Assembly (NCBI GenBank): GCA_903921825.1 | Contig: CAIXRF010000077.1 | Coordinates: 1-29,332, forward strand | Direction: 5' to 3' | Source: an uncultured Candidatus Micrarchaeota archaeon | Lineage (GTDB): Archaea > Micrarchaeota > Micrarchaeia > Burarchaeales > Fermentimicrarchaeaceae | DNA length: 29,332 bases | Shown: positions 1 through 29,332 of the stretch, piece after piece | Position numbering within the stretch: position 1 is the first letter of the stretch | Layout: the number at the start of each line of letters is the position of its first letter | The notes under the pieces: model-generated | What the model was told of the DNA's origin: nothing | Seen by the model: the letters and a program-made list of their open reading frames with translations, nothing else | The model's database searches: none | Position numbers and translations under genes: made by a program

Positions 1-485
1 ACTGCCTGCCCGATTCGTCCTGCATAGGCGGCGTATGCCGTGGCCAGGACTCAGACGGCGACGGAATTCCAGACGCACAGGACAACTGTCCCTCCGTATA
101 CAACCCCAGCCAGGCGGATAGCGATGGGGATCGCGTTGGTGACGCATGCGACAACTGCGTATATACACCCAATCAGAACCAGGCGGACAGCGATGGCGAC
201 GGAGTCGGCAATGTATGCGACAACTGCCCCGGCACATATAACCCAAGCCAGGCGGACAGCGATGGGGACAGAGTTGGCGACGCCTGCGACAACTGCATTT
301 ATACTCCCAACGCAGACCAGGCAGACGCCGATAGGGATGGCATGGGAGATGCGTGCGACACGTGCACACAGAACCAACAGTGCACCTATCCGCCTGAGAC
401 CTGCGACGCCTGCGATGTTGACTGCGAAGGGCAGACGGCTGACTGCGGGCATGGAACCTGCCAACACGGAAGATGCGCGCCCTGA
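1..485 (+). CDS. C-terminal fragment (5' truncated by the window edge) of an adhesin-like protein with thrombospondin type-3 (TSP3) Ca-binding repeats. Paralog of the downstream gene.
   Basis: Frame 3 is open from nt 3 to the TGA at 483-485. It translates to ...[37 protein letters not shown]..., repeated DxDxDGxxDxxDNC motifs. Nt 1-117 are identical to 1535-1651 inside the next gene. The tracked ORF 40..522 is in the wrong frame. Confidence 0.6.
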
Positions 486-7416: not shown

Positions 7417-8736
7417 ATGAGGTCTATTATATTCGCTCTCGCCCTTGCGCTGCTCGTTTCAAGCGTTTTTGCAAAGCCGCCTGAGCTCCAGGCGCTTGCC
7501 TCCGTGACATCATTCGAGGGATGGAACTGCAATCCCACGGGCGGGCCATACACGTTCACCGCAACAATCTACATCGCCAACCCCTACAACGGCACGATGA
7601 CGGTAAATTACACCTATTACGATTACTATGCGGGAAGGGAAACGGATGGCGGCCGCGTGTGCATGATTCAGGCGAACAACGAGGACCACTGCTCGTTCAC
7701 AATCCCCGTCACGCTGGGCGGGGAGGCCGCGGGCAACGCGAGCATGTCCGTGAAGCTATTTGCGTCGATAGACGGGGTCAGCGAGCAGCCGGAGAAGCGC
7801 ATCGACTACTCGTTCACGCATGCGCCCGCATCCACGGAAACGAACTCCCTCGCGAGCATAGCCGCGACGCAGGCAAGGCTCGATGGGGAAAACGTCGCCC
7901 TCTCGTCCGCGTGCACCGCGAACGGCGTGTGCTGCGGGATGGCTGGGCCGCAGGAGAAGCTCTCCGCGGCTGGTAGCAGCCTTGCGCTCGCCAGGGAGCT
8001 TGTGAGGCAGTGCAAGTTCAGCGACGCGACCACTACAACCGCCGCAGCCTCCGCGGACATCAACGGTGCCAACTCGACTTACCATTCCACGTTCAGGCAG
8101 TGCCAGTCAGCCCTGAACAACTACGCGTTTGCATATGGCAACCTCACGCGCGCGAACGAGACGCTGCTTAAGCGCGCGGCATGCGGGATGAACGTTTCGG
8201 CCTCCCGCACGGAGCTCGCAAACTCGGAAAGGCTCCTGGCGCAGGGCGCCGACAGGATAGAGGCCGACGCCTACTCGGACGCGGTGCTTTACCTAGAGCA
8301 GTCGCTTGAGACCACGAACGTCACATTCACTCTTTCGAATGACTGCCCGCTGGCAGGCCTGGGCTCCGCCGGGAACGTTACCGGGCCATCCCAGTCGCAG
8401 ACGCCTCCTCCGCAGCAGGCACCCGGAGAAGACCCGCTGTCAAAGGTGATAGGCGCGCTCGGCTACATAGTGATAGCTGCGATAATCATAGTGGTTGGCG
8501 CGGCAATCTACGTTTCGCTGGGCAAGAGGCACCTCGAAGGGATGATTAGCCGCGGGCCGCGCAGCGGCGCGGAACACCCCGGCGCACCGCCATCGCCAGG
8601 CGCGGAGCCCTCCGAAGAGCTGCCCCCGATTGACCACACCAAGGTGGAAGAGGAGTTCCAGGAGTGGCTGAAGAAGAGCGAAGCCGCGGAAGAAGCCCCA
8701 ACTGAAAAGCACGAGAAGCGCGGCAAGAAGAAATGA
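7417..8736 (+). CDS. Surface protein with a Sec signal peptide, an NxS/T-rich ectodomain, a C-terminal TM anchor, and a Lys/Glu-rich cytoplasmic tail.
   Basis: [19 protein letters not shown] is the signal peptide. ...[29 protein letters not shown] is the TM helix. The tail ...[29 protein letters not shown] is charged. TATA ggctttatatagc is at ~7373-7385 and the RBS aggtga at 7405-7410. Confidence 0.6.
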
Positions 8737-8792
8737 GGCCCGCGGCAAATCCATTTGAGCAGCCGCGGCAAAAACATTCCAAGGTGGTCGAG

Positions 8793-10679
8793 ATGGGTCA
8801 TAAGAACGCATTAGTTGCAGCCATCCTTCTGGTCGTGCTCTTCACGGCACGCGCGCCCGCAGCATCCGCGCCTGGGACGCAGCCGGCCGCTTTCGTAATC
8901 CCGAATTTCGTGGAAAACGGTTCCGCCTGGCATCGTTTCACCGTGAATGTCTCAAATCCCGCGAACGGGACAGCCTACAACTACGTCATAATGATATGGC
9001 CCGAAGCGGCCGCTTGGGAAGACCCGGGCCAGAGCGGATGCAGCGGCGGAGTGGTCGGAGTAAACAACAATAGCATCTACTGGAGAACGAGCAACTGCCC
9101 GCCACTGGGCGGCAGCATGGTCTTCAGCTTCGGCAAGGCGCTCAACCCAGTAAGCCTGAACACCACAAAGACAGTGCAGGTCTATGTGAGCAACGACAGC
9201 GGCGCAACGCTGGTGCCAGTTTCACCAACGAGCGGCTCGCCTGGCATCTGCACCGGCCCGATGAACAACCTGCAGATATGCCAGTACCTGCCCCCTCCCC
9301 CGAAGGTCATCAGCTCCTGCCCATACACAATAAACGCGCTGGCCAACTACACATTGGACGACAACCTCACCGCGGCAAACACGACGTGCATCGGAGTTAT
9401 GAGCGGAGGCAGCGGCTCAATGATAGACTGCAAGGGCCGCACTATAAACGGCACCGGAATGGCATACGGCATCTACCTGAACGACGCGAGTGGAATCCTG
9501 CTGAAGAACTGCACAATTACGCACTTCGAACGCGGAGTCTACCTCCTCAATGCCAGAAACAACACCATCCAGGACAGCTCATTCAACCTGAACGGCATCG
9601 GCGCCTACCTCTCCTCAAGCAACAACAACTCATTCCGCCGCGACAACTTCTCGGCAAACATCAATGACGGCGTACTAGTGCAGACCTCAACTACCAACGT
9701 ATTCGCCACCAATGAAATGTGCGCCGACCCGACCTACGGCGCTTACTGCTCCACGGCGCAGACCGGCGGGAGCAACAAGTGCGACACGGCCAAAGTCTCT
9801 TGCACTGGAATAACGTGCGGGACCGCATGCCCTACGCCCGCGCCCACCCCAACCCCAACTCCAACCCCGACACCGACGCCTACGCCAACTCCAACTCCCA
9901 CGGTGACGCCTACACCCACCGCGACGCCAACTCCAACCCCAACCCCCACACCAACGCCGTCTCCAACACCTACTCCAACTCCTACGCCATCCCCAACTCC
10001 GGCGCCCGGAACAATCACGTCCTGTCCCTACACGATAAGCATGCAGGGAAGCTATGCCCTCAACTCCAACCTGCAATCATCCGGCGGAACGTGCATAGGT
10101 GTAGGGACGGGAGGCAGCGGCTCCACGATTGACTGCAAGGGCCACACAATAAACGGCAGCGGCACAGGCTACGGAATCTACCTCAATGGCGCGGGCAGCA
10201 ACACGGTCAAGAACTGTACAATAGAGCATTTCGACAAGGGCGTCTATTTCCTCAACGCCAGAAACAACACCATCCAGGACAGCAACTTCATCCTCAACAG
10301 CTACGGCGCCTACCTCTCCTCAAACAGCAATGGCAACAGGATAACGAGCTGCGTCATGAATGCCAACGCCTACAAAGGGCTGTTCGTGCAGGCGTCGCGC
10401 GCCAACAACGTGAGCGCCAGTGAGGTTTGCTACAATGGCGACCCAATCTACGACCTCTACTGCTCCGCCGCGCAGGCGGGCGATGGCGGGAACTACTGCA
10501 ACACCACGAGAGCCCGCTGCAGCGGGATAACTTGCGGCTCGCCCTGTCCAGTTGTGACTCCAGCGCCCACCCCATGCATACCTGATGGGGACCCCTGCGG
10601 CGAAATCCCGTGCTGCTCAAGCTACTGCCATGGCGGGCTGGTATGCGGCCCAATGGTAACCCCAACGCCCACACCATAG
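8793..10679 (+). CDS. Secreted modular protein A: N-terminal unknown domain, two Cys-framed PbH1 (parallel beta-helix) modules separated by a long (PT)n linker, and a small Cys-rich C-terminal knot.
   Basis: Signal peptide [26 protein letters not shown]. The module ITSCPYTI...GGSGS(M/T)IDCKG(R/H)TINGTG.GYGIYLN...[34 protein letters not shown]..... occurs twice. The second-module version differs in places. The first module ends in [10 protein letters not shown]...[41 protein letters not shown]. The track start 8733 is replaced by ATG 8793 because the upstream word aaggtggtcgag ATG is shared with the next gene. Confidence 0.8.
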
Positions 10680-10712
10680 CCGATGCTCTGCCCTTTCTTG
10701 GTGCTGAGCGTT

Positions 10713-10733
10713 GCCGCCCTGAAAGCTATTTAA
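10713..10733 (+). promoter_or_regulatory. Conserved promoter block gccgccctgaaagctatttaa (TATA ctatttaa) upstream of modular protein B.
   Basis: The 21-mer matches 14199-14219 at 20 of 21 positions (a/c differs at position 10). It sits 37-44 nt upstream of ATG 10770. Confidence 0.5.
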
Positions 10734-10769
10734 GCAACCACCTGCAAATCAAACTCCAAGGTGGTCGAG

Positions 10770-13700
10770 ATGAATCCTAGGTCCGTTGTAGCGTCTATCC
10801 TGTTTGTCGCACTGTTTGCCGCGTTCGCTGCTGCGGCGCCTCCGGTTACCCACCAGCCGTCGCCAGTATGTTCCCAATACAACGAGACCAGCACAGGCTG
10901 TACGCCATATACCGGGCCACTCCTGAGTGATTCAGACGTCCAGAAAGAAGTCGGTGCCATTAACCAGAAGATAACGGAGCGAAATCTCAACTGGGTTGCA
11001 GGGGACAACTGGGTCGTGCGGCTGCCCGAAGCGGAGAGAACGCGCCTCCTGGGCGCAAAGCTATTTTCCCCGCAGGAAATGGAAGCGGCGGGCGTAAAAC
11101 CACTGTCTTATACTCCGGGCACAACGTTGCCGGTCGCTCTTGACTGGAGGAATAACGGAGGCAACTGGACCACGTCGGTAAAGAACCAAGGTGGATGCGG
11201 CTCGTGCTGGGCCTTTTCCGCGGATGGGGTCGTAGAGTCGCGGATGAACATCGATTTGGGCATCCCGCAATTCAATTATGTCCTTTCCGAGCAGGACCTT
11301 GTTTCCTGCTCCGGTGTAGGAAGCTGCAGTGGCGGCTACGAGGACCTGGCTATTGGCTATATTAATAATACTGGAACCACCAACGAATCCTGTTTCTCGT
11401 ACCAGGCATCCGACGTGTCATGCGGACTGAAATGCGCCAATTGGCAGGACCAGAAGGTGCGTGTAACCAATTATAGCTATGTCGCTGCCGGTGCCAACGC
11501 CATAAAACAGGCACTGAACACCTATGGCCCAGTTACCGTATCCATGCCTGTTTTTTCTGACTTCTTTGACTATTCCGGAGGCATTTATACCAGAACGTCT
11601 GACTATCTTGAGGGCTTCCACGCAATAGACATCGTCGGCTACAACGACACTGGCGGATACTGGATTGTTAAAAACAGCTGGGCTACCACCTGGGGTGAAA
11701 ACGGTTATTTCAGGATGAGCTATTCAGAAGATACAAACTATTCGACTTGGACTTGTTTTACTGTGTATGCCAGCTGTTCTCAGCCAGGCTCCTTTTTCAT
11801 GGACCAGAGCGTTGCCGTCATGAGCACAAACGCGCCAAGCCTGTTCAACTTCGGGTCGGTTTCGGGCTATGTGTTTGACGACCTAGCGCAGGGGATTGCG
11901 AGCGCAATTGTCAACGTGACGAATGCAAGCGGCTCGCCAACGAACCTCACGAATGCAAGCGGTTACTACATAATCGGTGTCGTTCCCGCCGGAACCTTTA
12001 GCATCAGCGCGAGGAAAAATGCCTCTCTTGGCACCAACACAACCACCGTGACCGTGGTTACAAACACCACCACCAATGTCAACTTCACTCTGTATGCGCC
12101 AACTCCGATTCCAACGCCAACCCCCGTGGTAATCAGCAGCTGCCCCTACACAATAAGCGCCCCAGGTGCCTACGTCCTGTCGTCAGACGTCAATTCGGCA
12201 AGTGGCTCGTGCATCGCCATATCCACGGGAGGCAGCGGCTCCACGCTTGACTGCCAGAACCACACAATAAACGGCAGCGGCACAGGCTACGGAATCTACT
12301 TCAACAGCGCAAGCGGCAGCATGGTAAAAAACTGCACTGTGAAGCGCTTCGCGCGCGGAGTCTACCTCTCCAGTGCGCGCAACAACACCATCCAGGACAG
12401 CGCATTCAACTCGAACAACTACGGCGCCTACCTATCCTCAAGCAACAACAACTCATTCCGCCGCGACAACTTCTCGGCGAACACCGCTGACGGCGTCTAT
12501 GTGGCGAGCTCAACTACCAACGTATTCGCCACTAACGAAATGTGCGCCGACCCGACCTACGGCGCTTACTGCTCCACTGCTCAGACAGGCGGGAGCAATA
12601 CCTGCAACTCATCCAAAATCTCTTGCAGCGGAGTAACGTGCGGCTCACCCTGCCCAGGCACGACTCCAACGCCTACACCCACTCCAACTCCAACACCCAC
12701 GGTGACGCCCACACCTACCGTTACGCCAACCCCCACTCCAACTCCGACTCCCGGCCCACCCACGCCCACCCCAACAGCTACCCCCACGCCAACTGCGACT
12801 CCAACTCCAACACCAACTCCAACCCCGACGCCCACCCCCACTCCAACTCCAGCGCCCGGAACAATCACATCCTGCCCATACACGATAAACGCCCCAGGTG
12901 CCTACATCCTAACGTCAAACATCAATTCGGCAAGCGGCACCTGCATTGCAATATCCACAGGAGGCAGCGGCTCCACGCTTGACTGCCAGGGCCACATGAT
13001 AAACGGCAGCGGCACAGGCTACGGCGTCTTCCTCAATAGCGCGGGCAGCAACACAGTCAAGAACTGCACTGTGAAGCACTTCGACAGGGGCATCTACCTT
13101 TCCAACGCCAAAAACAACACCATCCAGGACAGCTCTTTCAACGTAAATGCCTTCGGCGCCTACATCTACACCAACAGCAACAACAACTCTTTCCGCCGCG
13201 ACAATTTCTCAGCTAACACCAACAGAGGCGTCTATGTGATTTCCTCAACTACCAACGTATTCGCCAGCAACGAGATATGCGCCAACCCCACCCAGGACGC
13301 CTACTGCTCGGTGGCGCAGACAGGCGGGAGCAACACCTGCAACGTATCCAAAATCTCTTGCAGCGGAGTAACGTGCGGCTCACCCTGCCCAGGCACGACT
13401 CCAACGCCTACACCCACACCCACTCCAACCCCGACCCCGACGCCTACGCCCACTCCAACGCCCACGCCAACAGTAACACCAACGCCCACGGTTACGCCTA
13501 CGCCTACCGTGACGCCAACTCCGACTCCAACACCGACACCCACGCCAACTCCTACTCCAACCCCAACGCCGTCTCCAACGCCAAGCGGGACGGTCATTAC
13601 AACCTGCCCATACACAATAAGCATCCCAGGCACTTACATCCTCAGCGGAAACCTCAATTCGGCGAGCGGGACGTGCATAGGAATGACATCAGGGGGCAGC

Positions 13701-14141
13701 GGCTCCACGCTTGACTGCCAAAACCACACGATAAACGGCAGCGGCACCGGCTACGGAGTTTACCTAAATAGCGCAGGCAGCAGCACAATCAGGAACTGCA
13801 CAATCGAGCACTTCGACAAGGGCATCTACCTCTCCAACGCCAAGAACAACACCATCCAGGACAGCAACCTCATCGTCAACAACTACGGCGCCTACCTAGT
13901 GGCGAGCAGCAACGGCAACAGGATAACGAGCTGTGTCATGAACGCCAACACCTACAAGGGGCTGTTCGTGCAGACGTCGAGCACCAACAACGTGACCGCC
14001 AGCCAGACTTGTTTCAATGGCGACTCGATGTACGACCTCTATTGCTCCACGGCGCAGAGCGGGAACGGAGGCAACATCTGCACCACTTCGAGGGTTTCCT
14101 GCGGCGGAGTGACATGCAGCAGATCCTGCATCCCCGCCTAG
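10770..14141 (+). CDS. Secreted modular protein B: signal peptide, possible propeptide, papain-like C1A cysteine peptidase, CarbopepD_reg-like beta-sandwich, then three PbH1 modules joined by (PT)n linkers.
   Basis: Signal peptide [24 protein letters not shown]. The peptidase motifs [22 protein letters not shown] (Cys active site), [35 protein letters not shown] (His/Asn) and LSEQDLVSC read like papain itself. A CarbopepD_reg-like stretch (GYVFDD...[34 protein letters not shown]) follows. Then come three ~180-aa modules matching those in genes A and C. The track start 10761 is GTG. ATG 10770 follows the aaggtggtcgag word. Confidence 0.85.
12110..14141 (+). repeat. Three tandem module-plus-linker units (period ~733 bp) with high nucleotide identity. 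The same module recurs in genes A and C.
   Basis: Modules start at ~12131, 12865 and 13597 (atcagcagctgcccctacacaataagc...). Related copies start at 9309, 10017 and 14335. The string ggaggcagcggctccacg(c/a)ttgactgcca recurs at ~10110, 12229, 12961, 13693 and 14437. Confidence 0.75.
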
Positions 14142-14150
14142 CCAAAGCAC

Positions 14151-14172
14151 CTTCTTTTCCTTTTCTTTCCGT
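14151..14172 (+). terminator. T-rich tract after protein B. Candidate terminator.
   Basis: The sequence cttcttttccttttctttcc follows directly after the TAG at 14139-14141. Confidence 0.3.
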
Positions 14173-14198
14173 CTTGGCAGCGGCAGCTTTCCGGCGCG

Positions 14199-14220
14199 GC
14201 CGCCCTGCAAGCTATTTAAA
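14199..14220 (+). promoter_or_regulatory. Conserved promoter block gccgccctgcaagctatttaaa (TATA ctatttaaa) upstream of modular protein C.
   Basis: It matches 10713-10733 at 20 of 21 positions (c/a differs). It sits 34-42 nt upstream of GTG 14254, with a caaggtga word in between. Confidence 0.5.
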
Positions 14221-14253
14221 CTACGTGAGGCAAAAAAGAGTCAAGGTGATTTC

Positions 14254-16062
14254 GTGAGTCCTAGACCCCTGTTTGCGCATGCATTCTTGTTCATCGCACT
14301 TCTTGCGGCTTCCGCTGCAGCACCCGGGATAGCAATCACTTCCTGCCCGCGCACGATAAACGCCCCAGGCACTTACGTCCTCACCTCGGACCTAAACTCT
14401 CCGGGCGGGACGTGCATAGGCGTGGGCGCAGGCGGCAGCGGCTCCACGATTGACTGCCAGGGGCACCTAATCAGGGGCCCCGGCGCTGCGGGCTACGGGC
14501 TCTATCTCAACGGAGCGAGCTACGTTACGGTGCGGAACTGCACATTCCGGAGCTTCGACCGCGGAATATACCTCTCCTCAGCAAGGTACAACACCATTCA
14601 GGACAGCTCTTTCAACGCGAATAATATCGGCGCATACATCTATTACAACAGCAACAACAACACGTTCCTGCGCAGCAACTTCTCGGTGAACCGCGACAAA
14701 GGAGTATACGTATTCACATCCATAGGCACCGTATTCACCACCAATGAAATGTGCGCTGACCCAACCTACGACGCCTACTGCTCATCGGCGCAGACCGGCG
14801 GGAGCAACACTTGCGACACTGCCCTGGTCTCCTGCTCTGGCGTCACGTGCACGCATGCATGCCCAACCCCAGGGCCGACCCCCACGCCGACCGCCACCCC
14901 CACTCCTGTTCCGCCGACGCCCACCCCAACTCCGACTCCCGGCCCACCGACGCCCACCCCCACAGCCACTCCAACGCCCGTTCCGACGCCACCAGCATGT
15001 GCCTCGCCTGGCGGGGTTGTGAGCACCTGCCCATGCACCATCAACGCGAAGTCAAACTACTCCCTAAACCACAGCCTGACCGCCAACGGCACCTGCCTCA
15101 CATTCAACACAGGCGCAAGCAATTCCACGCTTAACTGCAACAACTTCAGCATCACCGGTCAGAACAACGGATACGGAATCCTCATGAACGGCGCCTATTA
15201 CATGAACGTGACGAACTGCAACGTGACCAATTTCACCTACGGCTTCTACCTGAGCGGGGCCAGCAGCAACAACATCCGCGCAAGCAGGGTATACCTGAAC
15301 ATATACGGCTTCTTCCTGAGCTACGCCTCCAACAACAACATCACCAGCAACACCGTCTGCTACAACCCAGTGGACCTCTACTGCGAGGCTTCACCGGGCA
15401 ACGCAGGCAGCGACGTCTACGACCGGAACACCGGGTGCGTGAGCATCACCAAGAGCGCATCCTGCCCGCCAGCCCCAACGCCTACGCCAACTCCCACGCC
15501 TGCGCCCACCCCTACTCCAGGCCCAATCACCATAAACGCATGCCCATTCACCATAAACAGCGCAGGGACATACCGCCTTACCCATGACCTCACAGCGAAC
15601 GGGACGTGCATAGGCATAATGAGCGGAGGAAGCGGCGCAATACTGGACTGCTACGGCTACGCCCTCTTCGGGAACGGCACAGGCTACGGGATTTACATGC
15701 AGACGAACAACGTCCTTGTCACCAATTGCGAAGTCAGCGGCTTCGACCGCGGCATTTACATGAAGAGTTCCAGCAGCAACAACTTTTTAGCAAACCTGCT
15801 CGAGCGCAACAACATCGGTGCCTACCTCTACGGCAGCAACTACAACCACTTCGACAGCAACATATTCGTCTCCAACCGCGACCGGGGGATTTACGTGCTG
15901 ACCTCGAGCAACAACCAGTTTTACAACGGCGAGATATGCTACAACGGAAACAGCAACAACGATGTCTACTGCTCAACTGCCCAGACTGGCGGGCTCAACG
16001 TCTACTGCGACATCTCGCGGATTTCCTGCCCCGGCGTAACCTGCGATGTGGGCTGCCCCTAG
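14254..16062 (+). CDS. Secreted modular protein C: one canonical and two diverged PbH1 modules with (PT)n linkers.
   Basis: Signal peptide MSPRPLFAHAFLFIALLAASAAAPG. Module 1: [44 protein letters not shown]...[24 protein letters not shown]...[41 protein letters not shown]. Later modules (TCPCTINAKSNYSL..., NACPFTINSAGTYRL...) are more diverged but keep the NxS/T-rich beta-helix periodicity and the terminal ...YCSTAQTGG...SCPGVTCDVGCP. GTG start. Confidence 0.8.
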   Translation: MSPRPLFAHAFLFIALLAASAAAPGIAITSCPRTINAPGTYVLTSDLNSPGGTCIGVGAGGSGSTIDCQGHLIRGPGAAGYGLYLNGASYVTVRNCTFRSFDRGIYLSSARYNTIQDSSFNANNIGAYIYYNSNNNTFLRSNFSVNRDKGVYVFTSIGTVFTTNEMCADPTYDAYCSSAQTGGSNTCDTALVSCSGVTCTHACPTPGPTPTPTATPTPVPPTPTPTPTPGPPTPTPTATPTPVPTPPACASPGGVVSTCPCTINAKSNYSLNHSLTANGTCLTFNTGASNSTLNCNNFSITGQNNGYGILMNGAYYMNVTNCNVTNFTYGFYLSGASSNNIRASRVYLNIYGFFLSYASNNNITSNTVCYNPVDLYCEASPGNAGSDVYDRNTGCVSITKSASCPPAPTPTPTPTPAPTPTPGPITINACPFTINSAGTYRLTHDLTANGTCIGIMSGGSGAILDCYGYALFGNGTGYGIYMQTNNVLVTNCEVSGFDRGIYMKSSSSNNFLANLLERNNIGAYLYGSNYNHFDSNIFVSNRDRGIYVLTSSNNQFYNGEICYNGNSNNDVYCSTAQTGGLNVYCDISRISCPGVTCDVGCP

Positions 16063-16105
16063 GACGGCTGCGCACAGCGGCACCCGCCACCTAGTCGGCA
16101 GATGG

Positions 16106-16129
16106 TTAATATATTTAACTATTCATAGT
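16106..16129 (+). promoter_or_regulatory. TATA box (ttaatatattt) plus a 12-bp palindrome ACTATTCATAGT. Candidate MarR operator overlapping the promoter of the efflux operon.
   Basis: AT-rich TATA at 16106-16116. The inverted repeat actat-tc-atagt at 16118-16129 lies between the TATA and the RBS gaggagagg (16141-16149). Confidence 0.45.
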
Positions 16130-16151
16130 CTTAACTGAATGAGGAGAGGCG

Positions 16152-16610
16152 ATGGACGAGGCGAAACTTGAGAAGCTTGCAGACAACCTGGTGCTGCTGA
16201 TGCGGGTATTCCGCATCATGCTGGCGGGCAGCGAGGGCCATGGGCCCAAGATAATGCCGCTGGACCCGCAATACTGGGTCCTTGGCATCCTGCAGCGCGG
16301 CGACCTGCCCATGTCCGAGCTCGGGAGGCGCCTCCACAGGTCCAAGCCGAACATGACCGCAGTGGTTAATAGCCTCATTGCAGACGGCAGGGTGGCAAGG
16401 CGGCCGGACAAGAGCGACCGGCGCATCGTCCGGATATCCATAACGCCGAAAGGGCGCGCGTTCCTGAAAGGGGCGAAGATGGCGGTCAAGGCGAACATGA
16501 AGCGGAACCTCTCGCGCCTGAGCAGCGGGGACCTCGACACCCTTTACTCCTCGCTGGAAGAAGTGAACAGGGTGATTGGCAAGGCGAGCGGTGGTTTGCA
16601 TGGCACCTGA
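16152..16610 (+). CDS. MarR-family winged-helix transcriptional regulator.
   Basis: 152 aa. wHTH: LPMSELGRRLHRSKPNMTAVVNSLIADGRVARRPDKSDRRIVRISITPKGRAFL. It is the first gene of an efflux operon. Confidence 0.85.
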   Translation: MDEAKLEKLADNLVLLMRVFRIMLAGSEGHGPKIMPLDPQYWVLGILQRGDLPMSELGRRLHRSKPNMTAVVNSLIADGRVARRPDKSDRRIVRISITPKGRAFLKGAKMAVKANMKRNLSRLSSGDLDTLYSSLEEVNRVIGKASGGLHGT

Positions 16611-17289
16611 GAAGAGCGCGAAAGTGCATCACGAGGCGCCAGCGGAGAAAAAAGGCGGCCCAGCCGCAGCTCTCGCCGCCATCCGCAACCACCCGCTTCT
16701 TGCAGAGGCGGTCCTCCTTATTGCCATAGTTGCGCTGATAGGAGGATACTTCTATTGGCAGGACATGCAGGGCAAGATATACCTGGAGAAGACAGTGATA
16801 AGCGCGCCGCTCATCTCGCTCGCGCCCCAGGCGCCGGGGCAGATAACCGAGGTCTATGTGAAGGAAGGCGACAGGGTTGCGAGGGGCCAGCGGCTCGCAA
16901 AGGTCGGGGACCAGTACGTCACCGCAAAGACCTCCGGAATAATCGTTTCGGTCAACAATGCGCCAGGGCAGATGGCGACCGCGCAGACGCCGGTCGTGAC
17001 GATGATAGACCCCACGCAGCTGCGCCTCATCGGCCGCGTAGAAGAGGACAAGGGGCTGAGCGACATCCGCCCGGGCCAGCGCGTCGCATTCACCGTTGAT
17101 GCGTTCGGCGCCAAGGAATACGAAGGCGTCGTGGAGTCCATAGCCCAGAGCGCGCACCAGTCTGACGTCGTTTTCAGCATCTCGGACAAGCGGGCGGAGC
17201 AGGAATTCGACGTGAAAGTCTGGTTCGACACCTTCACCTACCCTGAGCTCAAGAACGGCATGTCTGCGAAAATGACTATCTACAAATGA
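16600..17289 (+). CDS. HlyD/EmrA-family membrane fusion (periplasmic adaptor-like) protein.
   Basis: N-terminal TM anchor LLAEAVLLIAIVALIGGYFYW, then a biotin-lipoyl-like and beta-barrel part (LAPQAPGQITEVYVKEGDRVARGQRLAKVGDQY...IDPTQLRLIGRVEEDKGLSDIRPGQRVAFTVDAFG...). ATG 16600 is preferred over the track's TTG 16576 because GGTGG sits 5 nt upstream. It overlaps the marR stop. Confidence 0.78.
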   Translation: MAPEKSAKVHHEAPAEKKGGPAAALAAIRNHPLLAEAVLLIAIVALIGGYFYWQDMQGKIYLEKTVISAPLISLAPQAPGQITEVYVKEGDRVARGQRLAKVGDQYVTAKTSGIIVSVNNAPGQMATAQTPVVTMIDPTQLRLIGRVEEDKGLSDIRPGQRVAFTVDAFGAKEYEGVVESIAQSAHQSDVVFSISDKRAEQEFDVKVWFDTFTYPELKNGMSAKMTIYK

Positions 17290-18773
17290 TGCGCATGGCC
17301 GAACAGAGCGACAATCTCCGTTGGCTGATACTCCTTACTGTCATAATCGGCACATTCATGGGCAGGCTCGACCAGACAATCGTGAACCTCGCCCTGCCAA
17401 AGATAATAAGCGAGTTCTCAATCTCCATCCCGGAGGCGAGCTGGATAGCCACCGCCTACATACTCGCAAACGCGATATTCGTGCCCGTGTGGGGAAAGCT
17501 CGGTGACACGCAGGGAAGGAAGAAGATATACATCCTCGGCTTCGCGATATTCATCTCCGGCTCGGTCCTTGCAGGCCTTGCCTGGAACCTCAGCTCGCTG
17601 CTGGCGTTCCGCGTCATCCAGGCAATCGCCAGCTCCGCCGACTACCCGACCGCAATGGCGATACTCGCGGTCACTTTCAGGCAGGGAAGGGAGCGCGCCG
17701 AGGCGCTCGGCCTGTGGTCCGCCTCCTTCGCCGCGGCCGCGGTGTTCGGCCCGCTCGTCGGAGGCCCGCTGATAGACACGTTCGGCTGGAGGTCGGTGTT
17801 CCTCGTGAACCTGCCCGTCGGGATAATCGGCCTCGCCATGGCGCTCCTCTTCGTGAAGGAATCAACCGGCAGGCCTACCGCGAAGTTCGACCTGTGGGGC
17901 GCAATCACGCTCGGCATCTGCCTTTCCTCTTTCGTCCTGGTCCTGGACCAGGGGCTGGACTGGGGCTGGATGTCAACGAACAGCCTGCTCTGCTACGCAA
18001 CGACGATACTCTTCGGTTACATCTTCTACCAGATAGACACGAACCACCCCGAGCCGATAGTCGACTTCAAGTTCTTCAAGATAAACGCGTTCGTGAATGC
18101 GCTCGTCAACAACGTAGTGGTCTTCATGGGCATGATGGGCGGCCTCTTCATCCTGCCCGTCTTCGTCCAGACCTACCTCGGCTACAACGCGACGCAGACG
18201 GGCTACCTTTTCATGCCCATGGCGTTCAGCATGCTCATCGCGGCGCCGATAGGCTCGAGCCTCGTTGGCAGGGTCCAGCCGAAATACGTTATCGCGTTCA
18301 GCACGCTCATGGCTGCGGCAGGGCTCTACCTGTTCACCGGCCTCGACCCGCGCTCCGGAGTCCTCGACATCATAATCCCCATCATGGTGATGGCTTTCGG
18401 GATGGGCCTCGGCATGCCGCAGCGCACGAACATCATCGCCTCCGCGGTGCCCGAATCGGAAATAGGCATCGCGTCCTCTGTTCTCGCACTGGCAAGGAAC
18501 ATAGCGGGCGCGTTCGGAATCGCGCTCTTCGCAACCATCCTGAAGGAGAGCACTGAGGGCTACGCGCTCGCGCTCTCCCAGAACACGGTCATCAACACGC
18601 TGGACCCGGTGCTGAGGGCGGAAGCGATAGCGCTGATGACCCTGAAGGCGCAGATTCTCGCCTACCACGAGGTCTTCATCGTCTCGTCGGCGATACTCCT
18701 GGTCGCGTCGGCCCTCGCCCTCACCATCCATGTGAGGGAAACGAAGACGGGCAAGGAAGTCTTCGTGGACTAG
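17286..18773 (+). CDS. MFS transporter, DHA2 (EmrB/QacA-like, 14-TMS) drug:H+ antiporter family.
   Basis: ...LILLTVIIGTFMGRLDQTIVNLALPKIISEF...YILANAIFVPVWGKLGDTQGRKKIYILG...AFRVIQAIASSADYPTAMAIL... matches the DHA2 pattern. The length (495 aa) fits 14 TMS. Its ATG overlaps the HlyD stop in an ATGA arrangement. Confidence 0.88.
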   Translation: MMRMAEQSDNLRWLILLTVIIGTFMGRLDQTIVNLALPKIISEFSISIPEASWIATAYILANAIFVPVWGKLGDTQGRKKIYILGFAIFISGSVLAGLAWNLSSLLAFRVIQAIASSADYPTAMAILAVTFRQGRERAEALGLWSASFAAAAVFGPLVGGPLIDTFGWRSVFLVNLPVGIIGLAMALLFVKESTGRPTAKFDLWGAITLGICLSSFVLVLDQGLDWGWMSTNSLLCYATTILFGYIFYQIDTNHPEPIVDFKFFKINAFVNALVNNVVVFMGMMGGLFILPVFVQTYLGYNATQTGYLFMPMAFSMLIAAPIGSSLVGRVQPKYVIAFSTLMAAAGLYLFTGLDPRSGVLDIIIPIMVMAFGMGLGMPQRTNIIASAVPESEIGIASSVLALARNIAGAFGIALFATILKESTEGYALALSQNTVINTLDPVLRAEAIALMTLKAQILAYHEVFIVSSAILLVASALALTIHVRETKTGKEVFVD

Positions 18774-25142: not shown

Positions 25143-25778
25143 CTACTCCGCGTTGCTCGCAACAAACCACATCCTCTGGACGAGGGTGAATACGGAAAGG
25201 ATGACCGCGAGGATGATTGCCGCATCCAGATAAAGCGGGTAGGCATGCCAGAGGAGCATTCCGAGGAAGATGAGCCCGAGCCTCTCCGCCCTCTCGAGGA
25301 CGCCGCCCATCTTCCGCAGCTTCTTCTCGTCCGTGAGCGCCTTCCTGTGGTCTGCATATGCGCGGGCGAAGCTCACCATGCACGTGCCGAAGAAAAGAAG
25401 GAGCACGAGCAGCTGCCACATCGGCACAGCATAGCCTGCGAACACGACTTCCGGCAGCCCGAAGAGCATGAGCCCTCCGAGGAGCAGCGCCTCCACGAAG
25501 CGGTCCATCATCCCGTCGAGGTAGGCGCCGAAGTTGCTCACGCTGCCGGTTACGCGCGCTACCCCGCCGTCAATCGCGTCCATTAAGCCGGAAATGAGGA
25601 AGAGCGCGAGCCCCCACCCCATCTCGTGGTAATACGCAAGCGCGACGAAGCCAAGGAGCGCCGGAACGAGCGAGAGCAGGGTCCACTGGTTGGGCGTGAG
25701 CGGAATCCTCGAGAACGCTACCCCCAGCTTTATCCCTATCCTCTCAGCCAGCTCGGGAAACCCGGACTTCGCAACCAT
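25143..25778 (-). CDS. CDP-alcohol phosphatidyltransferase family membrane enzyme (AIP-synthase/AGP-synthase-like).
   Basis: The signature DAIDGGVARVTGSVSNFGAYLDGMMDRFVE matches D-G-x2-A-R-x8-G-x3-D-x3-D. ~211 aa with six hydrophobic helices. Confidence 0.85.
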   Translation of the reverse strand: MVAKSGFPELAERIGIKLGVAFSRIPLTPNQWTLLSLVPALLGFVALAYYHEMGWGLALFLISGLMDAIDGGVARVTGSVSNFGAYLDGMMDRFVEALLLGGLMLFGLPEVVFAGYAVPMWQLLVLLLFFGTCMVSFARAYADHRKALTDEKKLRKMGGVLERAERLGLIFLGMLLWHAYPLYLDAAIILAVILSVFTLVQRMWFVASNAE

Positions 25779-25782
25779 GCGC

Positions 25783-26262
25783 TCACGACACTTCCACGTG
25801 GTAGCTTATGTCGCCCACGATGTTGTGCAGTATGCCCGTCCTGTCGTCCGTGTATCCTATGTAGATGGTTCCGCGGTAGAACTCCCCTGCAGCGGGATAG
25901 GTACCGTCCGCCTTCTCGCAGTTCGGGAGCCCGGTGAGGTTCTTGTGCCTGCCGCTCTGCACTATGATCGCGGGACTTACCGTGACGATGTACGGGTCAG
26001 TCTCCTTGGCCGAGCAGCCTATGGACGTCAGCCGTATGTCTCCGCCGCTAGCCTGCCCCAGGTCCAGCTCGAGGACGCCTCCGTCCTTCACTGAATAACC
26101 GTAGCAGGAGAAGCCCCCGGGAAGGACGCACGAGTTCGGCGATGCGGTCTGGGGGTTGAACACGCCCAGCATGAAGAGGACCGCAACTACTACAAGCATG
26201 ATTAGGACTGCCCAACCGTAAGTCATGAGGAATTCCATAGCTGATTGGCCGCGCATGTCCAT
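25783..26262 (-). CDS. Pilin-like protein with a class III signal peptide.
   Basis: [37 protein letters not shown], with Glu at +5, then a ~110-aa globular part. ATG 26262 is preferred: GGAGAGGTG lies 7 nt upstream, and the track's 26268 is TTG. Its stop is 4 nt from the CDP-alcohol transferase start. Confidence 0.8.
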   Translation of the reverse strand: MDMRGQSAMEFLMTYGWAVLIMLVVVAVLFMLGVFNPQTASPNSCVLPGGFSCYGYSVKDGGVLELDLGQASGGDIRLTSIGCSAKETDPYIVTVSPAIIVQSGRHKNLTGLPNCEKADGTYPAAGEFYRGTIYIGYTDDRTGILHNIVGDISYHVEVS

Positions 26263-26300
26263 ATTCAAACACCTCTCCGGAGGTAGTTAAGTGGGCGCAT

Positions 26301-26316
26301 TTATAAGGCTTTTCGG
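26301..26316 (-). promoter_or_regulatory. Shared pilin promoter word: TATA TTATAA plus adjacent GGCTTTTCGG (plus-strand reading).
   Basis: The 16-mer ttataaggcttttcgg is identical at 28840-28855 upstream of another pilin gene. It lies 39-54 nt upstream of ATG 26262. Confidence 0.55.
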
Positions 26317-26317
26317 C

Positions 26318-28156
26318 TCACATCGGGCATGGAGTGTATGACGGTATTGCGCAGCCCGTCTGCTGGTAAAACGTGTTGTTGCTGCCGATTGTCTGTGTGT
26401 TGCTGCACCAGAGGTCGTTCCACGCTATCCCCCGCATGTTGTAGCAGACATAATCATCCGTTAGATTGACCGTGTTCGTGCCGATGGTCATGTTTACTCC
26501 TGTCGCAAAGTTGATGACGCTGCAGTTCTCGATGGTCATCGGAGCTTTCACGAGTATGCCCGTGCCAAAGTTATCCGTATTGTTTATGAAGTTGCCGCTG
26601 CAGTTCAGCGTCGAGCCTTCCGCCCCAGACTCGAAGTCTATGCACGGGAACGTTCCGCCGTAGTTGTTTATCTCGTGGGTCAGGTAGTAGCTTCCGGCTG
26701 CGCTCACCACCGTTCCGCAGTATGCTATCTCGCCGCCTGGCTCCGGCGTGTGCATGGTGCACGGCGCGGCCCTCATGATTCCGCCGCAGCCCGTGTTCGT
26801 GTCAAACGTGTCATCGCCGGAGTTGCCGCTTCCGCCACCGCAGCTGAAGTCCGTAGGGTTGGAGCAGACCGTGTTGCCCGTTATGTTGTTGCTGCTGCTG
26901 GACACGGCCAATTCAACGCCCATAGCGCTGTTCGACTCGATGGTGTTTCCGGAAACGTTGTTGCCGTTGCTGCTGTAGATCTGGAGGCCATGCCCGCAGG
27001 AGTGGGCGTTCAAGCTAAGCGTGTTCCCAGTAATTGTATTGCCATTGCTGCCGGACTCCATCGAGATGCCATTGCAGTTCGAACTGGCATCGTTGTCCGT
27101 GATGTTGTTGTTGCTTGACCCAGAGAGGTACATGCCAGCGCCCACATGGGCGTCTTCGCTGAGGACGTTGTACTCCAGCGTGTTGTGCGCAATGTTGTTG
27201 CCGTTGGACGCATACAGGTAAATGCCCACCTCAAAATACCTCACGGTGCAGTGGCTGACATTCACATTGCTCATGCCCCATGACAGTATGCCTGCGCCCC
27301 AGTTGGTGTTGCCCGTGATTACGTTGTCATTGCAGTCAAGGGTCGAGCCGGATGCGCCTGGAGTGACGTTTATGCAGCTGCAGTCAAAAGATCCGCTTGG
27401 GCAGCTGCTGCCCCCGGTCAGCGGGCCGCTGAGCGTGTAGTCGCCCTGAACGGTTAGCTCCGAGCCTGCTGGCCATGGCGTGTTCGGGTCGCAGGTGGTG
27501 ATTACCTCACTAATTGGCGTCGGAGTCGGAGTGGGCGTAGGCGTCGGCGTAGGCGTTGGCGTCGGAGTTGGAGTCGGAGTGGGCGTCGGAGTAGGCGTAG
27601 GTGTAGGCGTTGCCGTCGGAGTCACCGTGGGCGGCGGAGTTACTTGCTGCACCGCTATCTCCTCATACTTCAGCGACACATCTGCGGCGACCTGGCGCGT
27701 GAACCCCGTGTCCAGCTCCACGTATTCAACGAACATCTTCCCCTTGAACAGGTTGCCTGCCCTTCCGGTTGCAGTGCTGCCATCCTCACTGTGGCACACC
27801 TTTGAGCCGCTTTGGATGAACGCATGGTCCCCATCCACTATCATGACTGGGCTGTCCAGCGCGTCGCCAGAGCCTAGCACCGGCGAGCCCTCCGCGGTGC
27901 ACCTTATCCTCGTGACGTTTATCTGGTGGCCCGTGGACTGGCCGAAGTCAATCCCGAAATTGCCAGTGGTGTTCAGAAGAGGGCCTTTGCACAGGAAATT
28001 CGCCGGGAAGACGCACGTTGAAGCGAGGGGCGTCCTCGGGTTTATCAGGCCGACCCACAGCAGCATGCCTATCGCCACGAGCATTATCAGAATCGCCCAC
28101 CCGTAGGTGGTCAAGTATTCTATCGCCGACTGCCCGCGCAAAGTTTTTGTCGCCAT
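26318..28156 (-). CDS. Pilin-like (class III signal peptide) protein fused, through a long (PT)n linker, to a parallel beta-helix (PbH1/NosD-like) domain.
   Basis: MATKTLRGQSAIEYLTTYGWAILIMLVAIGMLLWVGLINP, then a ~140-aa pilin-like globule, then [35 protein letters not shown]. After that come GN(T/N)I(T/S)(G/D)N repeats (ITGNTLSLNAHSCGHGLQIYSSNGNNVSGNTIESNSAMGVELAVSSSSNNITGNTV...). RBS GGAGGGGTG upstream. Confidence 0.8.
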   Translation of the reverse strand: MATKTLRGQSAIEYLTTYGWAILIMLVAIGMLLWVGLINPRTPLASTCVFPANFLCKGPLLNTTGNFGIDFGQSTGHQINVTRIRCTAEGSPVLGSGDALDSPVMIVDGDHAFIQSGSKVCHSEDGSTATGRAGNLFKGKMFVEYVELDTGFTRQVAADVSLKYEEIAVQQVTPPPTVTPTATPTPTPTPTPTPTPTPTPTPTPTPTPTPTPTPISEVITTCDPNTPWPAGSELTVQGDYTLSGPLTGGSSCPSGSFDCSCINVTPGASGSTLDCNDNVITGNTNWGAGILSWGMSNVNVSHCTVRYFEVGIYLYASNGNNIAHNTLEYNVLSEDAHVGAGMYLSGSSNNNITDNDASSNCNGISMESGSNGNTITGNTLSLNAHSCGHGLQIYSSNGNNVSGNTIESNSAMGVELAVSSSSNNITGNTVCSNPTDFSCGGGSGNSGDDTFDTNTGCGGIMRAAPCTMHTPEPGGEIAYCGTVVSAAGSYYLTHEINNYGGTFPCIDFESGAEGSTLNCSGNFINNTDNFGTGILVKAPMTIENCSVINFATGVNMTIGTNTVNLTDDYVCYNMRGIAWNDLWCSNTQTIGSNNTFYQQTGCAIPSYTPCPM

Positions 28157-28191
28157 GTGGCACCCCTCCTTCAGTTAGTTGGGAAAGGCGT

Positions 28192-28200
28192 GTTTATAAT
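28192..28200 (-). promoter_or_regulatory. TATA box (tttataat on the plus strand; attataaa on the minus strand) for the pilin-PbH1 gene.
   Basis: It lies 36-44 nt upstream of ATG 28156 and is followed by GGAGGGGTG. Confidence 0.45.
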
Positions 28201-28225
28201 TTTGAGGGTGCGCGCCCGCCATAAA

Positions 28226-28804
28226 CTATGCGTACGTTGGGGTTGGAGTTGGCGGACCCGGGGTGGGCGTTATTGGCGGGGTGGGGGTCGAAATCGGCGT
28301 TGCAGTCGGGGTCGCAGACGCGCTCTCCACGCGGAACGCTATCTCGCCCACGGCCTTGTGCTGGACGTTCGTTTCCTCGTCGGTGTAGAGAACGTAGATG
28401 TGCCCGCTGTAGTATTCGTCCACGTTGGGCGGCGTGGTGCCGTCAGCCTTCGTGCAGTTTGCGTTAAGCGTGATCCTGTCCCCGCTATGAAGCTCCTCAT
28501 TAACCGAGGTATAAGTGGGGGTGTCGTTTTCCGAGCATGCGATCTCATCTATGCTGATGGTATGCCCCATATTCTGCACGAGGACGAGCGTCAGCGCGCC
28601 CCTCACGCTGTCCGAGCCTTCTATCTTGTAGTCCTGGCATGCGAAGCCGGACGGAAGGACGCACACTCTCGGAGAAACGGTCTTGGGGTTGAAGACGCCC
28701 AGGTAGAATAGTATGACGACCACCGCGAGCAGTATCACTATCGCCCAACCGTACGTCATCAGGAACTCTATGGCCGATTGCGCGCGTGATTCATTGCCCC
28801 TCAT
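28226..28804 (-). CDS. Pilin-like protein with a class III signal peptide and a PT-rich C-terminal tail.
   Basis: [40 protein letters not shown] ... C-terminus [29 protein letters not shown]. The globular part aligns with the 25783..26262 protein. Confidence 0.8.
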   Translation of the reverse strand: MRGNESRAQSAIEFLMTYGWAIVILLAVVVILFYLGVFNPKTVSPRVCVLPSGFACQDYKIEGSDSVRGALTLVLVQNMGHTISIDEIACSENDTPTYTSVNEELHSGDRITLNANCTKADGTTPPNVDEYYSGHIYVLYTDEETNVQHKAVGEIAFRVESASATPTATPISTPTPPITPTPGPPTPTPTYA

Positions 28805-28839: not shown

Positions 28840-28855
28840 TTATAAGGCTTTTCGG
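28840..28855 (-). promoter_or_regulatory. Shared pilin promoter word ttataaggcttttcgg.
   Basis: Identical 16-mer to 26301-26316. It lies 36-51 nt upstream of ATG 28804. Confidence 0.55.
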
Positions 28856-28880: not shown

Positions 28881-29332
28881 TTAAGGTCCGCCCCCAGCGG
28901 CTGTGCCCGCGTAGAGACCAAAACTACTCCATGCCAAGGAGTTCACGCCCTCTCCCGGGAAATTATGCCACAGCGACCATGACTCCGGGCCTGAATTCCA
29001 GAAATAGACGTTCCCTCCAGATGTGCCTGCATAAAGATTGCTAGAATACCAAGAAAGGGAGTTCACGCCCTCTCCCGGGAAATTATGCCACAGCGACCAT
29101 GACTCCGGGCCTGAATTCCAGAAATAGACGTTCCCTCCAGATGTGCCTGCATAAACATCACTGTAATACTCAACAACGGAATTTACGCTCTCGCCAGGGA
29201 AATTATGCCACAGCGAAATGGAGTCAGTTCCCGAATTGTAATAGTAGATGTTCCCCGCAGACGTGCCCACGTAAAGATTTCCCGACCCGCCCAGAAGCGC
29301 TATGGCGTTCACGCCCTCTCCCGGGAAATTAT
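28881..29332 (-). CDS. C-terminal part (N-terminus outside the window) of a protein built from ~40-aa tandem repeats, possibly beta-propeller-like.
   Basis: Repeats of YAGTSGGNVYFWNSGPESWSLWHNFPGEGVNSL. The reading frame stays open to the window edge. TAA at 28881-28883. Confidence 0.6.
   Translation of the reverse strand, partial: NFPGEGVNAIALLGGSGNLYVGTSAGNIYYYNSGTDSISLWHNFPGESVNSVVEYYSDVYAGTSGGNVYFWNSGPESWSLWHNFPGEGVNSLSWYSSNLYAGTSGGNVYFWNSGPESWSLWHNFPGEGVNSLAWSSFGLYAGTAAGGGP
28890..29332. repeat. Tandem DNA repeat of 120-bp period with ≥3.5 copies. Two adjacent copies are 100% identical over 97 bp.
   Basis: 28939-29035 equals 29059-29155 exactly. A diverged copy lies at 29179-29275 and another starts at ~29299 and runs off the window. 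Confidence 0.85.

Follow-up and report, generated by a model that had tools for sequence, protein, structure and literature searches.

The 29,332-nt window considered here (the whole stretch of DNA that was analyzed, contig CAIXRF010000077.1 of assembly GCA_903921825.1, GC content about 59%) comes from an uncultured Candidatus Micrarchaeota archaeon (Burarchaeales; Fermentimicrarchaeaceae) and carries a set of genes for probable archaeal type IV pilins, some of which continue into large additional domains. A preliminary description of this DNA had proposed four complete genes that begin with the same prepilin N-terminus, two encoding ordinary short pilins and two encoding pilins with grafted ectodomains. 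All four open reading frames (ORFs) are present, at 559-2307 on the + strand and at 25783-26262, 26318-28156, and 28226-28804 on the - strand, and the division into two plain and two extended proteins stands. With a further gene that is cut by the window start, the pilin genes of the window number five: two plain and three modular.

Pilin genes of the window

3-485, + strand: 3' end (160 codons plus stop, the stop at 483-485) of the fifth pilin gene, cut by the window start
559-2307, + strand: modular pilin with a 41-aa leader, pilin module, G/PT (PT, Pro/Thr) linker, Cys-rich repeats, TSP3 Ca-binding repeats, and MopE-like repeats
25783-26262, - strand: plain pilin, 159 aa, "B-type"; leader MDMRG, Gln+1 at aa 6
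26318-28156, - strand: modular pilin, 612 aa, with leader, pilin module, PT linker, beta-helix module, and a second short beta-helix-like module
27647-28132, - strand: pilin module of the 612-aa protein (aa 9-170), predicted N-terminal helix plus beta-sandwich; best match the "A-type" plain pilin of the related locus L008
27509-27646, - strand: Pro/Thr-rich linker of the 612-aa protein (aa 171-216), predicted to be disordered
26759-27508, - strand: NosD/PbH1 right-handed beta-helix module of the 612-aa protein (aa 217-466); the entry motif contains Cys, and the C-cap is Cys-rich
26321-26758, - strand: second, shorter module of the 612-aa protein (aa 467-612), sharing that entry motif (IAYCGTVVSAAGSYYL...CIDFESGAEGSTLNC); low-confidence model
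28226-28804, - strand: pilin, 192 aa, "B-type" duplicate; leader MRGNESRA, Gln+1 at aa 9; PT-rich tail

In a six-frame scan of the window, the motif [KR][GA]Q[ST]A[MILV]E[FY] has exactly four occurrences, solely at the N-termini of the four complete proteins; TYGWA and a stretch of about 20 hydrophobic residues come after it in each. Translations and regular-expression matching thus place a hydrophobic helix of about 20 residues directly behind a short charged leader whose last residue is Gly or Ala, the build of a class III signal peptide; the leader has 5-8 residues in three of the genes and 41 in the gene at 559-2307. Judged by pairwise alignment, the similarity goes beyond the N-terminus alone and is that of a whole pilin module of about 160 aa, common to all four proteins, which are 33-49% identical over it and conserve Cys and Gly positions.

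For the gene at 559-2307, the TSP3 and MopE-like repeats ascribed to it earlier are recognized by Pfam (TSP_3, E 2.6e-8; Cu-binding_MopE, E 2.3e-8). Upstream of it, translating 3-482 in frame 3 gives a sequence that is identical to the C-terminal end of P0055 (P numbers denote database proteins of the family). P0055 is a modular pilin of 483 aa that has a tandem-motif leader along with TSP3 and Cys-rich repeats. The pilin module of P0055 is almost identical to that of 559-2307, on which account the two genes are read as a tandem duplicate pair. At the other end of the window, the 192-aa pilin closes with a Pro/Thr-rich C-terminal tail of 33 aa (28229-28327, - strand) behind which no cargo domain follows, a linker without cargo. 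This tail could be what is left of a modular pilin or the forerunner of one.

Pilin identity and cargo domains

Three parts are predicted for each of these proteins: a short basic leader with Gly or Ala as its last residue, an N-terminal hydrophobic helix, and a head built as an immunoglobulin-like (Ig-like) beta-sandwich. The sites read RG|QSAME, RG|QSAIE, and RA|QSAIE, with Gln at +1 and Glu at +5 after the Gly or Ala. Gln+1 and Glu+5 are also found in the Epd pilins of Methanococcus maripaludis, whose sites are RAQI, KGQV, and KGQL; EppA cuts these pilins and needs Gln+1, and FlaK leaves +1 Gln substrates uncut (PMC3875500, PMC4371748). The proposal of a PibD/FlaK-type cleavage therefore survives in part: a permissive PibD or an EppA-like peptidase fits the Gln+1/Glu+5 sites, but FlaK, inactive on +1 Gln, does not.

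An AlphaFold model of the 159-aa pilin, computed with 34 family sequences, has a mean predicted confidence score (pLDDT) of 90 and comprises a helix at residues 5-31 and a beta-sandwich. Its structural matches include the P. arsenaticum pilin, Sulfolobus Aap, Saccharolobus pilins, archaellins, and FlaF/FlaG, and a Foldseek search agrees. An N-terminal helix with a beta-sandwich head, as in solved archaeal pilus subunits, is thus what the modeling predicts here too. A sequence-profile search of the PDB returned spurious ubiquitin and YajC matches only. The archaeal type IV pilin-like identity claimed at the outset is borne out by the motif, the predicted fold, and linkage to T2SSE and T2SSF genes in related genomes (see "Family, leaders, and gene neighborhoods"). 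As one part of an explanation that also includes the mechanism discussed below, these are probably type IV pilins of a DPANN archaeon that are paralogous to one another and belong to the Gln+1/Glu+5 class familiar from the Methanococcus Epd pilins.

The region behind the linker of the 612-aa protein is a PbH1 beta-helix, as had been suspected, and not unrelated low-complexity sequence: Pfam assigns it to NosD (E 1.6e-16) and Beta_helix (E 4e-13), with 60.8 and 49.7 bits against gathering cut-offs of 23.6 and 25.9, respectively. The linker itself, first given as 35 residues, measures about 43-46 (aa 171-216). In the AlphaFold model of the protein, the pilin module is confident, the beta-helix at residues 215-432 has pLDDT mostly of 80-94, and the linker is disordered. 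The module resembles NosD/PbH1 proteins (PF05048, PF13229) in its Pfam matches above the gathering score, its confidently predicted beta-helix, and the presence of NosD among its structural neighbors; it differs in that the window modules are short, have Cys-rich caps and PT linkers at their flanks, are repeated like beads on a string, and lack a nos context. A NosD function for the beta-helix was rejected, as the window has no nos genes (nosZ or nosFY).

The same kind of beta-helix was said to occur in giant secreted proteins encoded nearby, and pairwise BLASTP against the modules of 8733-16062 agrees (28-36% identity, E 4e-11 to 5e-19). The three neighbors encoded there have Sec-type signal peptides, and one has a papain-family Peptidase_C1 domain. 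Given this homology, the view of the 612-aa protein as a pilin-tethered counterpart of untethered proteins holds: tethered and untethered versions of one module are encoded in the same window. Since the cassette is short, capped, repeated on PT linkers, placed alongside an enzyme domain, and also carried by Sec-secreted proteins, it would be a portable binding or stalk module rather than an enzyme itself.

The Sec-secreted neighbors belong to a run of four consecutive genes for exported proteins at 7417-16062 (+ strand). The product of the first, 439 aa long, combines a Sec signal with a membrane anchor at its C-terminus. The remaining three products have Sec signals and two to three beta-helix modules each, with long PT linkers between them, and one of these, of 1126 aa, also has Peptidase_C1 and CarboxypepD_reg domains.

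Family, leaders, and gene neighborhoods

The profile of this pilin family gathers 9,031 cluster representatives at E<=1e-3, mostly from DPANN archaea. Nearly half of the new top representatives (70 of 142) exceed 250 aa, reaching 1,757 aa, and those listed have their pilin module at the N-terminus or close to it. Pfam scans of 66 long members identify NosD/Beta_helix cargo in 25, CarboxypepD_reg in 8, DUF2341 in 4, and Laminin_G_3 in 3; the remaining long members with matches carry beta-propellers, RCC1, or TSP_3. P0178, P0179, and P0180 have the layout of the 612-aa protein (pilin, PT linker, beta-helix) with the same entry and cap motifs, the common entry motif being I-T-x-C...G-x-Y-x-L...C-I-x-I...GGS-x-STLDC, followed by PbH1 coils and a Cys-rich cap. 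With 25 of the 66 long members and these three proteins sharing the architecture, pilin::beta-helix is, on domain assignments, the commonest fusion of the family and no curiosity of this window. A homologue search with the full-length 612-aa query was dominated by PT-linker matches; it gave about five useful matches and did not return the protein's own cluster. The archaeal literature searched yielded no account of pilin::beta-helix fusions, nor of this pilin family as such.

The most unexpected observation of the analysis is a tandem class III motif in the leader of some family members. The 41-residue leader of 559-2307 contains KGQSAM at aa 8-13, ahead of the site RG|QSAMEF with Gln+1 at aa 42 (nt 682). 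Of 129 family representatives whose N-termini are complete, 16 (about 12%) have extended leaders with one or two extra motif copies. The extra copies ([KR][GA]QSA[MI]) lie 15-30 residues ahead of the real site and have no hydrophobic helix behind them.

559-700, + strand, window: extended leader with tandem motif
P0008, P0009, P0012, P0015, P0024, P0040, P0044, P0048: tandem- or triple-motif leaders
P0055, P0065, P0069, P0070, P0075, P0088, P0089: tandem- or triple-motif leaders, continued

Types of leader spacer (QVA.GQQP, ESPSATAR, and GFSLR[EK]K) recur across proteins with unrelated cargo. The sole in-frame ATG between the two leader motifs of 559-2307 is the Met of the first "QSAM." The extra motif might be a decoy site or serve sequential processing or regulation; tandem class III motifs in DPANN archaea were not found described in the literature searched.

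As the preliminary description stated, the window holds no gene for a T2SSE ATPase or a T2SSF platform protein, according to Pfam scans of most of the larger ORFs, precomputed gene labels, and purpose-built hidden Markov models run on ORFs of at least 100 aa. These models were built from Pfam-confirmed locus proteins, four T2SSE ATPases and two T2SSF proteins adjoining family members. Related loci were obtained by scanning GTDB species representatives, which gave at least 594 matches; the counts that follow cover the best 80 (L numbers), which are mostly from Micrarchaeota, with Woese-, Pace-, and Nanoarchaeia in addition. The source species is outside these 80, and the top identity among them is 42%. 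A pilin lies within 10 kb of a T2SSE and/or T2SSF gene in 15 of the 80 loci, and of both in 7. Tight operons of ATPase, two platform genes, and pilin are found in L082, L053, and L067 and looser ones in L074 and L048, and L020 has the order pilin, ATPase, pilin::Laminin_G_3. Paired T2SSF platform genes adjoin family members in L064, L053, L067, L074, and L082; such pairs are a hallmark of type IV filament (TFF) "system 1" of methanogens and DPANN archaea (bioRxiv 10.64898/2026.04.22.720090). A crude scan of the related loci for A24-type peptidase motifs gave nothing convincing, which is weak negative evidence.

Archaeal pilin genes are often unlinked from their machinery, as with pilA1-6 of H. 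volcanii (PMC4371748), and the complete Micrarchaeota genome Mia14 ("Ca. Mancarchaeum acidiphilum") has two type IV pilus (T4P) systems and one FlaK-like peptidase at separate loci (PMC5498576). Related pilins and modular-pilin clusters in other genomes likewise sit among housekeeping genes. For example, L087 encodes three consecutive modular pilins of 754, 1461, and 515 aa at 10001-18318, flanked by histone, ribosomal-protein, and Mrp-antiporter genes and with no machinery within 10 kb. The 754-aa gene corresponds to P0178, with its beta-helix; the other two match P0069 and P0065 by length only, and both P0069 and P0065 have tandem- or triple-motif leaders. Since archaeal pilin genes are commonly unlinked and relatives of the window pilins are found among housekeeping genes, the absence of machinery near the window pilins is not anomalous.

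One neighborhood is conserved among related genomes:

25143-26262, - strand, window (also in L003, L004 9435-11169; L008 9456-11168): block of pilin, CDP-OH_P_transf, PHP phosphoesterase, and HTH (helix-turn-helix) genes

In L003 and L008 the order is pilin A (157-163 aa), pilin B (171-178 aa), CDP-alcohol phosphatidyltransferase, PHP, and HTH, with a DEAD helicase in L003. The 159-aa pilin of the window is the positional ortholog of the pilin ahead of the CDP-alcohol phosphatidyltransferase in both. The pilin module of the 612-aa protein scores highest against L008 pilin A (40% identity, 126 bits), above its own paralogs. Probably, as far as such comparisons go, linker and beta-helix cargo were grafted onto an A-type pilin in this lineage and the B-type pilin was duplicated. 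Scores of 82-105 bits against the window paralogs and B-type pilins, and of 96 bits against L003_A, count against this scenario; the margins are modest, which leaves it short of proven.

A lipid-synthesis gene also recurs beside pilin genes farther afield. The distant Micrarchaeota loci L015 and L020 have the order CDP-OH_P_transf, pilin, T2SSE ATPase, confirmed by Pfam in L015; in L020 the gene upstream of the pilin was assigned to CDP-OH_P_transf by sequence resemblance only.

Upstream of the three pilin genes at the right end of the window are the following putative promoter elements, given as on the coding strand:

26301-26316, - strand: putative BRE/TATA (BRE, transcription factor B recognition element) word CCGAAAAGCCTTATAA, ending 38 nt before the ATG of the 159-aa pilin; GGAGAGGTG follows
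28840-28855, - strand: second copy of the putative BRE/TATA word CCGAAAAGCCTTATAA, ending 35 nt before the ATG of the 192-aa pilin; GAGGGA follows
28189-28203, - strand: putative TATA-like element AAAATTATAAACACG of the 612-aa gene; GGAGGGGTG and then the ATG follow

The 16-mer TTATAAGGCTTTTCGG reported for the two short pilin genes occurs exactly twice in the window, with none expected. The 612-aa gene has, as noted before, a TATA-like sequence of its own, AAAATTATAAACACG, and the three ATGs are preceded by purine-rich, ribosome-binding-like words (GGAGAGGTG, GGAGGGGTG, and GAGGGA). From their sequence and position, the word and the TATA-like element may act as promoters. The idea of a co-regulated set gains from the word common to two genes but not from the third, which has a separate promoter, and co-regulation is suggested. 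The 16-mer is not conserved ahead of pilins in the other genomes examined, which makes it species-specific.

Directly upstream of the pilin cluster, a gene at 28881-29312 (- strand) runs past the right window end. It encodes repeats of about 37 residues (…YAGTSGGNVYFWNSGPESWSLWHNFPGEGVNS…) with weak beta-propeller-type Pfam matches and comes to 374 aa on the source contig, with CDC48 next. About 10 kb past the window end (the source contig has 49.5 kb) was read as a gene list with precomputed Pfam labels; it holds the repeat protein, CDC48, DUF1405, Hjc, and other genes.

Proposed filament display and its alternatives

The proteins can be envisioned as subunits of a filament. Cleavage before Gln+1 would fall to a class III signal peptidase, either EppA-like or a permissive PibD, whose gene would lie elsewhere, and a type IV filament machine, also encoded elsewhere, would pull the helix from the membrane and polymerize the pilin modules. 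In related DPANN archaea (Woese-, Pace-, and Nanoarchaeia, and the Micrarchaeota metagenome-assembled genome of L064), such a machine would consist of a T2SSE ATPase and two T2SSF platform proteins. Plain pilins would make up the bulk of the fiber; modular pilins would enter at low frequency or at the tip, with the linker keeping the binding module off the shaft. The likely function would be attachment to glycans or proteins of a host-cell surface or to a matrix, which would match the ectosymbiotic lifestyle of cultivated DPANN archaea. Every step of this display on filaments is one we infer, and taken as a whole, archaeal modular type IV pilins are the explanation that we favor with fair confidence.

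Several observations weigh against it. Recognition as class III signal peptides, part of the test attached to the original proposal, went the other way: PF04021 (Class_IIIsignal) and the other Pfam pilin models have no match on the whole proteins, on their 40-aa N-termini (E<=10), or on 34 family members (E<=1), and NCBIfam models of archaeal pilins and flagellins have none to the window pilins. T2SSE and T2SSF were also not found in the gene list of the 10 kb past the right window end, and Peptidase_A24 had no match in the Pfam scans or gene labels of the window, to which no dedicated peptidase model beyond Pfam was applied. Glu+5 is kept in all pilin modules, those of modular pilins included, so that no module bears the mark of a tip-initiating subunit. 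The last 180 residues of the 612-aa model have low confidence, and the structural neighbors of its beta-helix are generic and have weak E-values (GH87 glucanase, NosD [7osf, 7o0y], phage tailspikes and depolymerases, and AlgG).

Because no pilin or class III model matches, the family, despite its 9,031 representatives, is unannotated in Pfam and NCBIfam. Gene callers, moreover, often start its genes at the conserved Met +4 or at MTYGWA, which deletes the leader and the cleavage site; entries started in this way include P0001 (the window gene 25783-26262), P0007, P0013, P0014, P0045, P0050, and P0064, and further P0068, P0078, P0094, P0097, P0101, and P0103. Systematic mis-starts and the lack of a Pfam or NCBIfam model together hide the family from pilin predictors that rely on signal peptides.

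The strongest competitor, which we consider unlikely, is anchoring of the bindosome or pseudopilus kind, in which class III signal and pilin module would only process the ectodomains and hold them at the surface, as a surface layer or as short stubs close to the membrane, with no long pili. Large non-pilus proteins that bear class III signal peptides are established in archaea, and a wide occurrence is predicted for them (PMC4371748; bioRxiv 10.64898/2026.04.22.720090); the sugar-binding bindosome proteins of Sulfolobus depend on a dedicated TFF core. Like those proteins, the window proteins place a large ectodomain behind a class III signal and helix and are encoded away from TFF machinery. 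The modular genes lie far from any machinery, and the cargo of half of the top representatives, at 400-1,600 residues, would be hard to pack as major subunits. Bindosome proteins, however, share the signal and helix only, whereas a complete Ig-like pilin head, conserved with plain paralogs, is kept here; plain pilins of the same family occur in operons with ATPase and platform genes; and a flexible linker of 45 residues suits display on a shaft or at a tip. Bindosome subunits are solute-binding proteins (SBPs) without a pilin head, encoded beside ATP-binding cassette (ABC) transporters, and no ABC transporter or solute-binding domain is associated with the window genes. Identification as a bindosome-type binding protein was for these reasons rejected: the pilin head is present, and neither the genes nor their neighbors have SBP or ABC domains.

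It is far less likely that the pilin N-terminus is a mere secretion and processing signal, with the PT linker cut and the modules released as soluble or matrix proteins. Proteins of the same genome do carry this beta-helix cassette out by Sec, a gene for a papain-family protease lies nearby, and the cargo-less PT tail of the 192-aa pilin can be read as the state after cargo loss. That tail, however, is encoded as such and is no processing product, a full conserved pilin head would be needless for an export signal, and the fusion architecture is conserved over many lineages. PT linkers are, besides, typically protease-resistant spacers. Least probable of all is a nonfunctional mosaic, with the 612-aa gene arising by a recent accidental pilin/beta-helix fusion through PT-coding repeats, which are prone to recombination: syntenic relatives do have a plain pilin at the same position, but the ORF is intact with TATA and Shine-Dalgarno-like sequences of its own, the architecture recurs across the family as described above, and identity of just 28-36% to the neighboring beta-helices indicates that the fusion is not recent, so that old divergence and recurrence led to its rejection.

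For the favored reading of modular type IV pilins, the closest precedent is bacterial. Modular pilins are widespread in bacteria, numbering over 1,200 proteins in 264 architectures (Raynaud et al. 2021, PMC8179133), among them Streptococcus sanguinis PilB (pilin plus vWA) and PilC (pilin plus lectin) and a Thermus ComZ pilin with a beta-solenoid module (PMC8179133). The window family likewise couples a complete N-terminal pilin module, by way of a linker, to a domain lacking pilus specificity, with plain major pilins alongside; in both groups the cargo is diverse, including lectin-like and CarboxypepD_reg domains, and adhesion is predicted. The bacterial census was defined by IPR012902 (PMC8179133), whose motif (G|F[TS]LxE) is not carried by the window pilins as read from their translations: their site is G|QSA[MI]E[FY], with Glu+5 alone shared. 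Bacterial modular pilins have an alpha-beta roll head, unlike the predicted Ig-like beta-sandwich that the window family has in common with other archaeal pilins. The window family further differs in its long PT linker (about 45 aa) and in the dominance of the NosD-like beta-helix.

Among archaea, the M. maripaludis Epd pilins share the Gly/Ala leader end, Gln+1, and Glu+5 (RAQI/KGQV there, RGQS/RAQS in the window), several pilin genes away from the epd operon, and the two platform genes of "system 1." The major Epd pilins are tiny and headless, however, whereas the window pilins have a head of about 130 aa and are missed by the Pfam DUF361/Class_IIIsignal model. No cargo domains are described for Epd pilins (PMC3875500, PMC4371748), in contrast to the window family. 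In Mia14, LamG-like surface proteins are linked to T4P loci (PMC5498576). They come from the same phylum-level lineage and have adhesion-type domains that, with T4P, were proposed for host contact, and L020 encodes a pilin::Laminin_G_3 protein beside a T2SSE ATPase; the Mia14 proteins differ in that neither a pilin fusion nor beta-helix cargo is described for them (PMC5498576).

The arrangement thus looks like a common one in DPANN archaea and the archaeal counterpart of bacterial modular pilins, a known design principle and no new mechanism. More speculatively, and with considerable doubt on our part, DPANN pili could be combinatorially functionalized, with an unmodeled pilin as the carrier onto which portable modules are grafted and swapped, and with the extended leaders of about 12% of members acting as a hitherto undescribed pro-leader or decoy. 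If this is true, modules such as beta-helix, TSP3/Ca-binding, LamG, and propeller domains would be exchanged with Sec-secreted carriers of the same genome, giving a fast-evolving host-recognition and attachment toolkit that sets host range, and the extra leader motifs would control the timing of pilin maturation or the peptidase responsible for it.

To our knowledge, all cultivated DPANN archaea are attached to host cells. A pilin family of thousands, missed by curated libraries and with adhesion-type cargo in half of its top representatives, is a testable candidate for this attachment. Although it will not surprise a pilus specialist, the finding should be useful to the biology of DPANN host attachment, and it would extend the modular pilin principle from bacteria to archaea.

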